From contig JAHQWH010000059.1 in assembly GCA_029856105.1 (NCBI GenBank), positions 1 through 41,690 of the forward strand: DNA of 41,690 bases. Direction: 5' to 3'. The stretch's first letter is position 1; each line of letters begins with the position of its first letter. The notes under the pieces were generated by a model. The model saw only the letters and a program-made list of their open reading frames with translations. It did not search any database and had not been told where the DNA came from. This DNA comes from Promethearchaeia archaeon (GTDB taxonomy: Archaea > Asgardarchaeota > Lokiarchaeia > Sigyniarchaeales > SOKP01). Below, in pieces: positions 27,141 to 32,753 of the stretch. The position numbers and the translations under genes were made by a program.

Positions 27141-27689
27141 TTACTTACCACGCATAAATGACGGGAGCATTAAGCTAAAAATTTCTGCTATTTTTCTCAA
27201 CTTAGCAGCTTCCTTAATTATAGTAATAATCAAAACCGATTTTTCAAGTTCTTCCTTAACTAAAGAACCGCCCGAATAAATAGCTTCTTCAGAATTGAAA
27301 ACTAACAAATACCTGACATTAGGATTGTTAATAATACTTACTCCAGAGGTTACTTTTAAGTCATCGTATACTTCTTGAAAAGCTTTTGGAATGCTTCCTC
27401 TATCGTTAGTAATTATTAAAATTGGAATTCCTTTCTGAGTTAACTTCTTTACCTCATTAGCGTAGAATCTATCGATTTTAGGCGAGACAATATTTAATTG
27501 TTGTTTTGTTGAAGTAATTAGACTAATTAAACGCTCGTTAAGTATATTCTTGCCTTTAGGGCCCCCTGAAGATTCCAAATTTATCATTCCTACTAGCGAT
27601 AAAACCTTACTCTCTAAGTTTTGAACTTCTCTTCTGAGACGGTCGTTATCAACCCGGAGTTCAATAATTCTATCAGACAAATCTATCAA
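27141..27689 (-). CDS. Coiled coil plus PLD/TrmB-like fold protein lacking the HKD motif
   Basis: N-terminal heptads, then LISLITSTKQQLNIVSPKID..KGIPILIITND..NVRYLLVFNSEEAIYSGGSL, which follows the PLD pattern with HxK replaced. Confidence 0.65.
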   Translation of the reverse strand: MIDLSDRIIELRVDNDRLRREVQNLESKVLSLVGMINLESSGGPKGKNILNERLISLITSTKQQLNIVSPKIDRFYANEVKKLTQKGIPILIITNDRGSIPKAFQEVYDDLKVTSGVSIINNPNVRYLLVFNSEEAIYSGGSLVKEELEKSVLIITIIKEAAKLRKIAEIFSLMLPSFMRGK

Positions 27690-27739
27690 CTAATTTTTTA
27701 TAATTTTAATTTTTAATATGAATAATTTAATATAATACT

Positions 27740-30337
27740 TTAACTTAATTTTTTCCACGGCTTTCCAAAAAGCATATAACTTGATATTGCTAAAGAACCT
27801 TTTAAATCGATGTGTTTAGTTCTATCCTCAGCGGATAAGTCTTTAAAGTTTTGTTCTACGAGTTTAGTCATTTTATTTGCCATACATGCTTGGCGAGCTT
27901 TTAAGAGCGAAACTCCTTGGCTCCGATAACTGAATAAATTAACGTAAAAATTAGCGATTATTTCTTTGGTTTCATCGTCAAAAATAGGATAATTTCTCGA
28001 TATAATGCCTATGATTTTATCGTAATCAAAATGTTCTACAATTTCTCCGAAAGTTCTTGAAGCATTTTTTAACTTCTGTCCTTCAACATCATATATTTGA
28101 GAGTTGAAAAATAAGAAAGGTTTCATATTAGATTTACTCCCTTGCATTGAATTGTTGATATCGTTAAATGTAACGATTTCGTTGTCGTTAGTCAGAAAAA
28201 AACTATCACGGGGATTCCATTTGGAGTAAAAGATATTTCCTACAAAATGGATTATATGGTTCGCTCCGCCAGCGATATGTGATAAAATGTTTTCTCGAGT
28301 CGAGTTAGGTCCTGCTAAAACGGTTATTTGGCTTATTTCTTCTCGATTATTAAAGAATTCTGTAATGTAATTAAATTCATTTATTCCAGCTTCAAAAGGA
28401 AATATTAGCTCTTTAGATTTAAGCTTTTCATTCCATCTAACTGGCTTTGAATTATTAATGCTTTCTATTATAAGTACATCAAATTTTTTCTGGACCTTTA
28501 AACCTTCTTTATTTTCTTCAACATCACGACCAAAAGTTATACCCCCTAATGGAGGCTCTCCAATTATGTAACTAATGGAATATTTTAATAAGAAAAAGCT
28601 TTTATCGTAAATTAAATCGAATGGGATGGTCATATCATCTAAAATAAAATAAATTTCTGGGGTAAAATTTAAAGCCTTTATCTCAAATTGTTTAAAAAAA
28701 GTTCTTATTTTATTAGGAAGAAAAACATATAACAATCGACCAAATTCTTTTAATGTAAAGTTGTACTTTTTCTCTAGGTTATCAGAGAAGATATCGTTGT
28801 AAATGTCAAGAATATGAGCATCATTCCAATATTCGTCAAGAATTTTCCCTTCAACTATATTATTTTCTTTAGAAATCATTCGAATAGATATTGACCCTTC
28901 AGTATTTATCCTAAATATCATTTGTTTTATTATAAATCCTTCTTCAAATCCCATAAAAAAAAGATCATCTTCTCCAAAAGAATAAATATCTCTCTTAAAT
29001 GATTCTGTTTCGTTATACAGTAGAAGCGGATCGGTAATCAACGCTCTCAAATTTTTTTCTAGGTACGGTAATATTTTTTGAGCGAGATTGAAATCCTTTT
29101 CCTCATATAAAACACGATAGAACATCATTCTCCAGAAATCTCTCTGCTCTAATGAGAAAAAAATTGACTTAAATTTCCATAAGAAATTACAAGTGTAAAA
29201 ATAATGATATAATTGGGCGTTATTTTGAGGTATTTTCAGATGAGTGTTTAATTTTTCAAGAGATTGTAATAGATATTTTTTCTCTTTCATTTCTACGAAT
29301 TTTTTGGAAGCCTCAACCCATAATTCAATTAAAATATTATCGTATCCAAGGTCTGTTTGGTACATAAACAGATCTTCTAAGAAATCATAGATATCAAAAG
29401 CTATTTCAAACCTATTCCTTGAAATTGCGAAACTTATGAATTTCCTAATATATGTAACTGCGTCACCGTACGATTGAAATTCGCGAATTTTGGAAAATAG
29501 ATTTTTAATGATAATGATTATCCAAGTGTATTCTCCAATATCGTTTAAATAGTAGATTAATTCCTCTAACTCTACTAAAATAGTATTAAAATTTCTATTA
29601 TTTATAGAGATTTTGCTTAAATTACTAAATTCATTTTTTAAATATCCTGGAATCCGATTTACTAATATATTCTTCATATATTTCACGAAATCTTCGGAAT
29701 TATCTATGAGGTGATAATCCATATTAACATTTTCTATAAAAATATAAAGAAACAAAGCCCTTTTCCCAGGTTCTAGTTTAAATATTGTTCTGCCTAAAAC
29801 TTCCATACTTAAATGAAAATATTCCTGTGGGATAACAGATTTTCTTAAATACATTAAAATTATTTGTAATTCAATCAGTTTAATATATTCCTTCCTTTCA
29901 GTCACTTTAACACAGAAAGAGTTTATGAATTTAGTTATACCCATTTGAGATAATTCGTCCATTGTAATAAACGATTTCAATAAGTTGGTGACAAAATTAT
30001 TGAAAAGATAGAAATCGTCTAATTTTGATAAAAACGAGAAAAATCTTTTGTAAGCGTCTATGTATCTAATAACATCTACTTCGGTCCCCTCGTCAGTTTT
30101 ACGCGTCAAGGAATTGATGTATATCCACCAAGAATTTGATATTATCATGGTTAATTGGTGTTTTTTCTGGATATCGAGCCAATCTGTTTTTTCTATCTCA
30201 AAATACAAATCAGTTAATAAGCGATCAGCCCATAAATGATTAGCTGATTGCAACAATCTTCTTCCTTGTATTATTCTTTGTTGAAAATCTTTTAAGAAAT
30301 TTGATTTTAATTTTAAGTTAATAGACATTGAAACCAT
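27740..30337 (-). CDS. Helical-solenoid plus C-terminal CHAT (caspase-like) domain protein, catalytic dyad apparently lost
   Basis: GRLLY..LP, IPFDLIYD..FFLLKYSI, E...I..F, STRENIL, IIHFVGN (consensus IHFAGH), LFFNSQ (consensus VFLNAC), FY.NL....G.SLLKARQ, SYMLFGKP. Confidence 0.8.
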   Translation of the reverse strand: MVSMSINLKLKSNFLKDFQQRIIQGRRLLQSANHLWADRLLTDLYFEIEKTDWLDIQKKHQLTMIISNSWWIYINSLTRKTDEGTEVDVIRYIDAYKRFFSFLSKLDDFYLFNNFVTNLLKSFITMDELSQMGITKFINSFCVKVTERKEYIKLIELQIILMYLRKSVIPQEYFHLSMEVLGRTIFKLEPGKRALFLYIFIENVNMDYHLIDNSEDFVKYMKNILVNRIPGYLKNEFSNLSKISINNRNFNTILVELEELIYYLNDIGEYTWIIIIIKNLFSKIREFQSYGDAVTYIRKFISFAISRNRFEIAFDIYDFLEDLFMYQTDLGYDNILIELWVEASKKFVEMKEKKYLLQSLEKLNTHLKIPQNNAQLYHYFYTCNFLWKFKSIFFSLEQRDFWRMMFYRVLYEEKDFNLAQKILPYLEKNLRALITDPLLLYNETESFKRDIYSFGEDDLFFMGFEEGFIIKQMIFRINTEGSISIRMISKENNIVEGKILDEYWNDAHILDIYNDIFSDNLEKKYNFTLKEFGRLLYVFLPNKIRTFFKQFEIKALNFTPEIYFILDDMTIPFDLIYDKSFFLLKYSISYIIGEPPLGGITFGRDVEENKEGLKVQKKFDVLIIESINNSKPVRWNEKLKSKELIFPFEAGINEFNYITEFFNNREEISQITVLAGPNSTRENILSHIAGGANHIIHFVGNIFYSKWNPRDSFFLTNDNEIVTFNDINNSMQGSKSNMKPFLFFNSQIYDVEGQKLKNASRTFGEIVEHFDYDKIIGIISRNYPIFDDETKEIIANFYVNLFSYRSQGVSLLKARQACMANKMTKLVEQNFKDLSAEDRTKHIDLKGSLAISSYMLFGKPWKKLS

Positions 30338-30351
30338 TTAGGCTAATTATT

Positions 30352-31545: not shown

Positions 31546-31590
31546 ATTTTTTTTAATTGTTTAATATTAAAATAATCTTGAGTAAAACCT

Positions 31591-32310
31591 TTATTGTTGA
31601 TGGATGAATTCATCCGATAATTTTTTTAATTGATATTCCTTCACTTGCAATTCTAATAACCCTAAAACCATTTTAAATTCACTGGACATAGATTCAATGT
31701 CTACGCCTGCAATCTTTTCAACTTCCTCGCGTTTTATCTTAAATTGTTCCAAATTGTATCGAATTTTATCGTATGAGTTATTTATCGTCGTAGATAAGTC
31801 TTCGGTGTTTTTCTTTGTTATCTTCCTCATCTTTCTAAGTATTGAAAGGATAGAAGATATAGAATTCTCCCATTGGTTATAACGATCTACATAACCTTTA
31901 AATACTTCTTCAAAAAAATCAGCTAATTTAACGTAAATATCGTCTTTCTTAGAGAAAGAGGGGGTTTCAATGGTACTGGGGGCAGGAGTAGGAATCTCCA
32001 CTGTCATTTCTTCTTTTTCTTCAGAATCTTTTGGAACAGGCTCTCTTTTTTGGAGAGGCTTTCTCTCGGTAAGCGGAACTTCTTCTATCATGTAATCTTC
32101 TGCTATTTTCTTCTTGACTTCATAAGAAAGCTGAGGCGAAATTTTTTCTTCTTCTTCTTTTGGAGAAATAAAACCTTCATCTTCACTGAAGGCTTTAAGT
32201 AATCCTTGCAAGGTTGATTCTGTCTTTTTCGACGTTTTCAAGATGTTATCTAAAGTGTAGATAGGAACTTTTTCTTCTATTTTTTTTTCTTTCTTCTTTT
32301 TTTTAGCCAT
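31591..32310 (-). CDS. Hypothetical protein: basic N-terminus, acidic/Pro linker, C-terminal coiled coil
   Basis: MAKKKKKEKK start, low-complexity middle and amphipathic helical C-terminal half. Confidence 0.75.
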   Translation of the reverse strand: MAKKKKKEKKIEEKVPIYTLDNILKTSKKTESTLQGLLKAFSEDEGFISPKEEEEKISPQLSYEVKKKIAEDYMIEEVPLTERKPLQKREPVPKDSEEKEEMTVEIPTPAPSTIETPSFSKKDDIYVKLADFFEEVFKGYVDRYNQWENSISSILSILRKMRKITKKNTEDLSTTINNSYDKIRYNLEQFKIKREEVEKIAGVDIESMSSEFKMVLGLLELQVKEYQLKKLSDEFIHQQ

Positions 32311-32348
32311 AAGACTTAAACATCAACTTTACAATTCTGAGATATATA

Positions 32349-32753
32349 TTATTCCAAAGATAGAAATTCTACTTTAACTGCTTGTCCTTTTTCTAGTAAA
32401 ATTTTTTCGAGTTCTTCTGAAGGAAAACTTGGACTTTCGGAAATTACCGTCCACACAGCCGTTTTGTTTTTTTCAACGATAACGGCTTCGCTATACATCA
32501 TACTTAGTTTTAAATCTCCAAAAGTGGTTGCTAATTTTGCTAACGCTCCAGGTGTATCTCCCATAGTAATTCTTAATTTGATAAGATTACTCTCATCTCG
32601 TAAACCAATTGGAGATATTTTTATTTCTTTAGCTTCAGAGTCGCTAACCATCATTAATTGGGAATTAGTGGTAATTCCTAAGGACTTTCTTACGATTTGT
32701 GGAATAACTATTCTACCACGTTCGTCTATTGTAAGAATTTTAACTTCTTTCAT
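32349..32753 (-). CDS. AbrB/MazE/SpoVT DNA-binding domain fused to ACT domain
   Basis: TIDERGRIVIPQIVRKSLGI (AbrB) and LRITMGDTPGALAKLATTFGDLKLSM (ACT). Confidence 0.88.
   Translation of the reverse strand: MKEVKILTIDERGRIVIPQIVRKSLGITTNSQLMMVSDSEAKEIKISPIGLRDESNLIKLRITMGDTPGALAKLATTFGDLKLSMMYSEAVIVEKNKTAVWTVISESPSFPSEELEKILLEKGQAVKVEFLSLE

Follow-up and report, generated by a model that had tools for sequence, protein, structure and literature searches.

What does an actin-related protein (ARP) do in an archaeon when the products of two genes beside it have kept the folds of enzymes and lost the catalytic residues? Asgard ARPs are frequently invoked as signs that the cytoskeleton is regulated in a eukaryote-like way, and we know of no function or partner for any of them. 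The question is raised by a stretch of 41,690 nucleotides (nt) from a Promethearchaeia archaeon (contig JAHQWH010000059.1, positions 1 to 41,690; hereafter the window), which belongs to a genome of 3.66 Mb in 238 contigs (G000). Further genes of the window (Roadblock, LRR, VWA) and the names under which near homologues are filed ("Lokiarchaeota/Promethearchaeota archaeon") place it among the Loki-type Asgard archaea. Positions 27141-32753 hold five successive minus-strand open reading frames (ORFs) encoding, in reading order, an AbrB-ACT protein, a basic orphan protein, an ARP, a helical solenoid joined to a CHAT domain, and a coiled coil joined to a phospholipase D (PLD)-like fold. A sequence-only reading had described five closely spaced co-directional genes, which the ORF listing bore out (intergenic gaps of 38, 45, 14, and 50 nt), and had proposed an ARP operon built from dead enzymes behind a possibly nutrient-dependent regulator.

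The answer favored here is that the orphan, ARP, CHAT, and PLD-like genes probably constitute the four-gene core of a lineage-specific, vertically inherited, non-catalytic ARP module, comprising a basic helical protein, the ARP, a pseudo-CHAT protein, and a pseudo-PLD protein. The evidence supports the ARP and the CHAT-domain scaffold as the pair at the heart of this module.

Conservation and co-occurrence of the four genes

Four families, labeled f1, f2, f3, and f4, make up the comparison within the order of Loki-type Asgard archaea to which the window belongs. Every locus fetched (about 40 from about 20 genera) kept the gene order orphan, ARP, CHAT, PLD-like, so the arrangement is not a product of chance, and the co-directional cluster is syntenic across Lokiarchaeia-type genomes, a check that the sequence-only reading had proposed. 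In each of f1 (about 13 genera), f2, and f3, the four genes stood next to one another in this order, with inter-family protein identities of 22-43% and with different flanks. A search of 400 Asgard genomes recovered full-length orthologues of the scaffold in 117 of 134 f1 genomes, 7 of 14 f2 genomes, the single f3 genome, and none of the four f4 genomes. No full-length orthologue was found outside the order among these 400 genomes, where only other, active CHAT proteins matched the scaffold, and then in the C-terminal domain only.

The ARP and scaffold genes occurred together. Among 153 genomes of the order, 121 carried both, 26 carried neither, and six carried one only; all six discordant genomes had partial matches, mostly at the ends of contigs and in one case broken by stops. 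The same picture came from closed single-contig genomes, with both genes in G038, G171, G216, and G217 and neither in G032 and G033. Between ARP and CHAT the median gap was 14 nt, and at 17 of 41 loci this junction was at most 10 nt or overlapping, with overlapping start and stop codons in several lineages, and no other junction of the module was ever as short as 10 nt.

One further locus was encountered in genome G170 (L045:3823-7224:-), where the contig end truncates a CHAT-like gene that is followed directly by an orphan-like gene and an unknown protein of 834 amino acids (aa). Profile comparison of this third gene established no relation to the family, and the best ARP-like gene of the genome (238 bits) lies on another contig.

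A divergent actin-related protein

The ARP belongs to the actin family, matching PF00022 at 172.8 bits (cut-off 27) over residues 9-376 and actins in the PDB at 1e-33 to 1e-38. Its divergence, already proposed from the sequence alone, was upheld: among the five actin-family genes of G000 it scores lowest against the actin profile, it is 25% identical to the Lokiactin of the same genome, and an ARP-only profile separated its orthologues (at least 238 bits) from all other Asgard actins (at most 222 bits). It is a non-Lokiactin paralogue. For the same genome pairs within the order, the ARP was 29-63% identical whereas Lokiactin was 89-99% identical.

Alignment with Lokiactin (actin numbering) revealed the replacements D154N, D157E, G158S, H161Y, G15N, and Q137E, and extra residues are inserted in the region of subdomain 2 and the D-loop. 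The 21 ARP orthologues aligned retained G13, G156, and the adenine-pocket GG. In actin, Q137 and H161 position the catalytic water; these positions varied freely across the 21 orthologues, while Lokiactin keeps them. The ARP thus departs from filament-forming actin and Lokiactin, whose marks are conservation of the phosphate-binding loops and of the catalytic residues Q137 and H161. Because the catalytic-water positions are replaced and not conserved, we infer a non-hydrolyzing and probably non-polymerizing subunit.

A species in culture carries the module as well. The two qPCR primers published for GenBank UYP47647.1 of "Candidatus Lokiarchaeum ossiferum" have exact matches within the ARP gene at the syntenic locus of closed genome G171 (6,035,313 bp), so UYP47647.1 is the L. 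ossiferum orthologue; it has the same four-gene neighborhood, and the window ARP is about 32% identical to it. UYP47647.1 is one of three ARPs in the published tree and quantitative PCR (qPCR) panel, and its transcript was among those of four actin homologues measured by reverse-transcription qPCR, with Lokiactin at the highest level (Rodrigues-Oliveira et al. 2022, PMC9834061). That report on the L. ossiferum ARPs describes no partners, gene neighborhood, or active-site state.

At the L. ossiferum locus itself (L043:8624-8837:-), the conserved N-terminal stretch of the ARP, about 69 codons, is open and contains no ATG, GTG, or TTG; the start may be non-canonical, for example an Ile codon.

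A pseudo-protease and putative scaffold with a separase/Csx29-like layout

The protein encoded after the ARP matched the CHAT family PF12770 at 25.8 bits, just above the cut-off of 24, and the approximately 450 residues before this domain had no family match. An AlphaFold2 model built from a 28-sequence alignment (predicted local distance difference test, pLDDT, 84.8; predicted template modeling score, pTM, 0.79) displayed a helical solenoid (residues 1-451), a beta/alpha pseudo-protease-like subdomain (about 470-600), and a caspase-fold/CHAT domain (about 617-865). Its top Foldseek matches were the TPR-CHAT protein Csx29 (4e-11), the anti-sigma factor DdvA, and separases. With VIA-align, residues 470-865 were superposed on human separase 1704-2120 with Z 16.6 and a root-mean-square deviation (rmsd) of 3.7 Å over 273 aligned residues; superpositions on Csx29 gave Z 15.2-18.4 (470-865 on Csx29 397-715, Z 15.2), and the last domain aligned with SAVED-CHAT (Z 17.0, rmsd 3.2) and with metacaspases too. 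Both sequence and fold therefore place the scaffold in the CHAT/caspase-fold clan. A comparison of its family profile with the PDB by sequence matched no solved chain, the likeness being seen by structure search. The resemblance to eukaryotic separase is one of architecture and fold only (Z 15-16.6, 8-12% identity), and Csx29 scores equally well.

Active members of the CHAT/caspase clan carry two catalytic residues, a His in an AGH motif that follows strand 3 and a Cys in an xAC motif that follows strand 4. The sequence-only reading had held these positions to be degenerate and had quoted parts of HIIHFVGNIF and FLFFNSQIY, which are indeed present at residues 694-703 and 741-749. For the 28 family members, an hmmalign alignment was made with five genuine Asgard CHAT proteins (Pfam 80-107 bits) as controls. 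In the family, Asn occupied the His column (N701 in the window protein; Ile in f3), and the Cys segment contained no Cys in any of the 28 members; the controls read AGH and SC or AC at these sites. The dyad was thus absent from 28 of 28 family members and present in five of five active Asgard CHAT proteins, and the scaffold is, as judged from its residues, a pseudo-protease throughout its family. Despite the lost dyad it is strongly conserved, with the family-specific invariant motifs EYWND and N628..P632..W635.

Other Asgard families encode fusions of a Ras GTPase with a CHAT domain that retains an intact His/Cys dyad (552-554 aa; L055:708-2372:+, L056:1078-2742:+, and L058:1609-3267:-). With Pfam scores of 111-126 bits for Ras and 95-107 bits for CHAT, these fusions are candidate GTPase-controlled proteases.

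A PLD fold without the HKD motif

The last protein of the core scored 20.7 bits against PLDc_2, under the cut-off, and its PLD fold was confirmed by an AlphaFold2 model (pLDDT 83.8) with an N-terminal helix/coiled coil (residues 4-32) followed by the PLD domain (34-177). VIA-align gave Z 19.2 against NucT (rmsd 2.0, 140/158 aligned), 17.3 against Nuc, 16.5-16.9 against the FAM83A/B pseudo-PLD domains, 15.7 against Zucchini, and 14 against TrmB/TrmBL2. NucT was also matched by Foldseek (9e-9) and, across the whole domain, by the family profile (E 1.1e-3), which assigns the protein to the PLD superfamily with a single-domain fold of the Nuc/NucT type.

Active HKD phosphodiesterases of this superfamily share the motif HxK(x)4D(x)6GSxN. 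In the profile alignment with NucT, H was replaced by V125, K by Y127, D by N132, and GSxN by SGGS, and no His or Lys occurred at the HKD columns in the 33 PLD-like family members aligned. The string quoted for this position by the sequence-only reading lies at residues 124-132 (NVRYLLVFN), and its view that both enzymes are catalytically dead survived proper alignment to active CHAT proteins and to NucT. The former active-site strand (NNPNVxYLL) and a C-terminal LPSFMR tail were nearly invariant, a pattern in the alignments that suggests a retained binding function.

The orphan basic protein

The first protein of the core has a poly-Lys N-terminus, followed by a variable acidic/Pro-rich linker and then by a helical C-domain of about 115 aa (residues 124-239) that is conserved. 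Its family alignment showed F132, Y144, W147, N168, F190, K193, Q222, and E225 to be invariant, and the linker motif YSLDxALKSxKKTE is specific to f1; the KKTE resembles the LKKTET of thymosin/WH2, by eye only. Neither Pfam nor NCBIfam holds a family for this protein, and no Pfam match to WH2, Thymosin, or HSA was obtained in 22 orthologues at E values up to 10. From 1.84 billion representatives the C-domain profile retrieved no more than 81 clusters, every one of them with the same architecture, and a Protein Atlas look-up returned only the protein's own cluster (score 0.80).

Around the C-domain motif W-E-N-S-I (window 31591-31965), sub-threshold matches to Forkhead (9/22 orthologues) and PBC (10/22) were seen and are probably due to chance, and the sub-threshold PBC, Forkhead, and coiled-coil Pfam matches in the 22 orthologues were discarded as such.

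The AbrB-ACT gene and the flanking genes

The gene that precedes the core in the window (Table 1) encodes a candidate regulator of the AbrB/SpoVT type with an ACT domain. Its AbrB part matched TIGR01439 (31.1 bits, cut-off 28.3) and PRK08577 (85.6 bits); the ACT domain was sub-threshold in the window protein (18 bits), and Pfam detected it in all 20 orthologues examined (best E 2.4e-7). The family profile matched AbrB structures in the PDB at 1e-4 and, weakly, the ACT domains of AHAS and PAH. This single-copy gene stands before the module only in families f1 and f3. The f2 orthologue lies 225-308 kb from the module in an unrelated context, and f2 is the family of L. ossiferum. The proposed operon behind an AbrB-ACT regulator accordingly holds for f1 and f3 and fails for f2. 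Since the gene lies beside the module in these two families alone, nutrient regulation, a pure inference of the sequence-only reading, is unsupported. TATA-like runs 30-60 nt 5' of the AbrB-ACT ATG were read directly in the intergenic region and mark a candidate promoter; a scan for bacterial-type promoters and terminators gave no signal above shuffles, and its models, being bacterial, are not applicable to archaea.

Table 1. Features of the ARP locus in window coordinates.
Feature	Position	Strand	Basis or remark
AT-rich intergenic region between divergent LRR gene and AbrB-ACT gene; candidate promoter region	32754..33086	.	sequence read directly
AbrB/SpoVT + ACT-domain protein, 134 aa	32349..32753	-	candidate regulator; TIGR01439 match
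Basic/disordered orphan protein, 239 aa	31591..32310	-	poly-Lys N-terminus, variable linker, helical C-domain
Divergent actin-related protein (ARP), 397 aa	30352..31545	-	PF00022, 172.8 bits
Putative pseudo-protease scaffold (helical solenoid + CHAT), 865 aa	27740..30337	-	PF12770 and AlphaFold2 model
Coiled-coil + predicted non-catalytic PLD-fold protein, 182 aa, TTG start	27141..27689	-	AlphaFold2 model

Upstream of the module in f2 stand either Hef and PHP genes, as in two genera, or genes for a response regulator and ArsR. In the two genera with Hef (helicase, ERCC4, and HhH) and the PHP-domain protein, these genes precede the module with gaps of 24-36 nt and an unannotated protein of about 405 aa comes after it, so that the unit there may comprise seven genes (L023:2092-5412:+ and L023:10436-11653:+, also L022 and L024).

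Downstream in the window (22917-26965), an Eco57I/MmeI-like N6 DNA methyltransferase of 724 aa was found (PADLOC type IIG, 128.8 bits). Opposite-strand orphan ORFs at 25991-26965 separate it from the module; they are absent at orthologous loci, where the methyltransferase comes directly after the PLD-like gene, consistent with the small insertion that had been noticed there from the sequence. Upstream (34031-37843), a VWA protein that includes a GC-rich segment (0.42 against about 0.31) is encoded together with a Roadblock/LC7 protein and one of 286 aa, a block that is syntenic with the module within f1 only.

A proposed assembly and its competitors

Gene order, conservation, catalytic-residue loss, folds, and co-occurrence were observed; the physical complex, the subunit roles, and the cellular role given below are proposals. 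None of the module products would be expected to catalyze the reaction of its fold. The ARP, evolving about ten times faster than Lokiactin, would most likely be a non-polymerizing subunit held by the separase/Csx29-shaped scaffold, the genes for the two being presumably coupled in translation and present or absent together. The PLD-like protein probably dimerizes by way of the coiled coil at its N-terminus and its PLD domain and may serve as an adaptor or ligand-binding subunit, in the manner of FAM83 DUF1669 and TrmB effector domains, and the orphan protein, with its poly-Lys tail, disordered linker, and conserved helical domain, could act as a tether. As a committed guess, which is tentative and weaker than the proposal of the module itself, the assembly might use its ARP face to bind or cap the ends of Lokiactin filaments or Lokiactin monomers. 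Considerably more speculative, and unlikely in this full form, is that the separase-like pseudo-protease clamps a non-hydrolyzing ARP while the disordered region of the orphan protein threads the dead groove like securin, or presents its thymosin/WH2-like KKTE, and thereby controls Lokiactin filament ends.

Several points weigh against the proposal of a non-catalytic ARP module. The neighbors are mixed, with a gelsolin/roadblock cluster near the module in f1, but Hef and PHP in f2 and the methyltransferase point to DNA and not to the cytoskeleton. The f1 metagenome-assembled genomes (MAGs) that lack the module also lack AbrB-ACT, the VWA gene, and the orthologous methyltransferase, with flanking genes at contig ends; since the block from VWA through methyltransferase and DEAD helicase is missing as well, co-absence in f1 may partly be assembly drop-out, and co-loss in these MAGs was downgraded as evidence for this reason. 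Adjacency within f1 is uninformative by itself, as the module is embedded there in that larger syntenic block, and the MAGs are interrelated, so that the counts overstate independence. Longer, fused forms of the ARP were sought at E 1e-20 and none was found, which is weak evidence. A complex prediction for ARP and PLD-like proteins with the orphan protein as partner returned an ipSAE (interaction prediction score from aligned errors) of 0.00 in two runs; made without controls and with an uncertain orphan fold, it is not counted among these points and weighs neither way.

The foremost competitor is a chromatin- or DNA-associated ARP module resembling the nuclear ARP modules of INO80, SWR1, and BAF, in which the orphan protein would be HSA-like and the dead PLD fold would bind nucleic acid. 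It draws on the nucleases NucT, Nuc, and Zucchini and the archaeal chromatin protein TrmBL2 as the best structural matches of the PLD-like protein, on the poly-Lys N-terminus of the orphan protein, on the closely spaced Hef and PHP genes before the module in two f2 genera, and on the DNA N6-methyltransferase and DEAD helicase after it in f1. However, these DNA-related flanking genes vary by family and do not occur at the L. ossiferum locus, the orphan protein gave no match to an HSA, WH2, or DNA-binding family, and similarity to a nuclease fold says nothing on retained DNA binding. We regard this explanation as improbable.

Slightly less probable still is that the genes are neighbors by descent only, within a slowly rearranging block without shared function or complex. 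Synteny in f1 does extend well beyond the five genes, with the VWA gene upstream and the methyltransferase and DEAD helicase downstream. The four-gene order nevertheless survives in f2 and f3 at the inter-family identities given above with all flanks different, the start and stop codons of ARP and CHAT genes overlap in several lineages, and closed genomes show joint presence or absence. Mere inherited adjacency is unlikely because the order is conserved with changed flanks and overlapping genes.

A degenerate or atypical anti-virus or conflict system, suggested by the common use of CHAT proteases and PLD nucleases as defense effectors, by Csx29 (type III-E CRISPR) and SAVED-CHAT as the closest solved architectures, and by the adjacent type IIG-like methyltransferase in f1, is very improbable and was rejected, since the catalytic sites are lost in every member of proteins that are yet strongly conserved, PADLOC-DB contains no match for AbrB-ACT, ARP, CHAT, or PLD-like proteins and only a weak coiled-coil match of the orphan protein to ZorA (E 8e-4), the module is single-copy and tracks family-level taxonomy instead of a patchy island-like spread, and no sensor or nuclease partner was identified.

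Significance and comparison with known systems

A literature search on Asgard archaea with ARP, CHAT, or separase, and on accession UYP47647.1, found no description of the module. It offers one clade of ARPs three candidate partners, all of them conserved, and its presence in cultured L. ossiferum makes pull-downs, localization, and cryo-electron tomography feasible now. It also provides two retained pseudo-enzymes, one separase/Csx29-shaped and one PLD-folded, that probably serve archaea as scaffolds. If true, a clamped-ARP complex would represent an independent, Asgard-specific form of ARP-based actin regulation and would hint that separase-type scaffolds predate the protease role.

The scaffold shares with separase and Csx29 the layout of a solenoid, a pseudo-protease-like subdomain, and a caspase fold. 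It differs from them in the absence of both catalytic residues and in its surroundings: there is no CRISPR context of the kind known for Csx29 (type III-E "Craspase") and no cohesin context, and the partner gene encodes an actin relative. The PLD-like protein resembles the FAM83 DUF1669 and TrmB/TrmBL2 effector domains in being a single PLD-fold domain without the HKD motif, and such PLD folds serve as binding or oligomerization modules; a long helix precedes the fold in TrmB/TrmBL2 as it does in the window protein. Unlike them, it has neither the kinase-docking context of FAM83 nor the winged-helix DNA-binding domain of TrmB, no sequence relationship is detectable, and its nearest fold neighbor is the active nuclease NucT, not FAM83 or TrmB.

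With Arp2/3, dynactin, and the ARP modules of INO80/SWR1, the common ground is one of concept, namely a non-filament subunit of the actin family among dedicated non-actin scaffolds. No partner protein of the module is homologous to subunits of those complexes, and a eukaryotic ARP class is not assignable to its ARP from the present data. The module is a variant of the known idea of ARP-containing assemblies, made from unrelated partner proteins.

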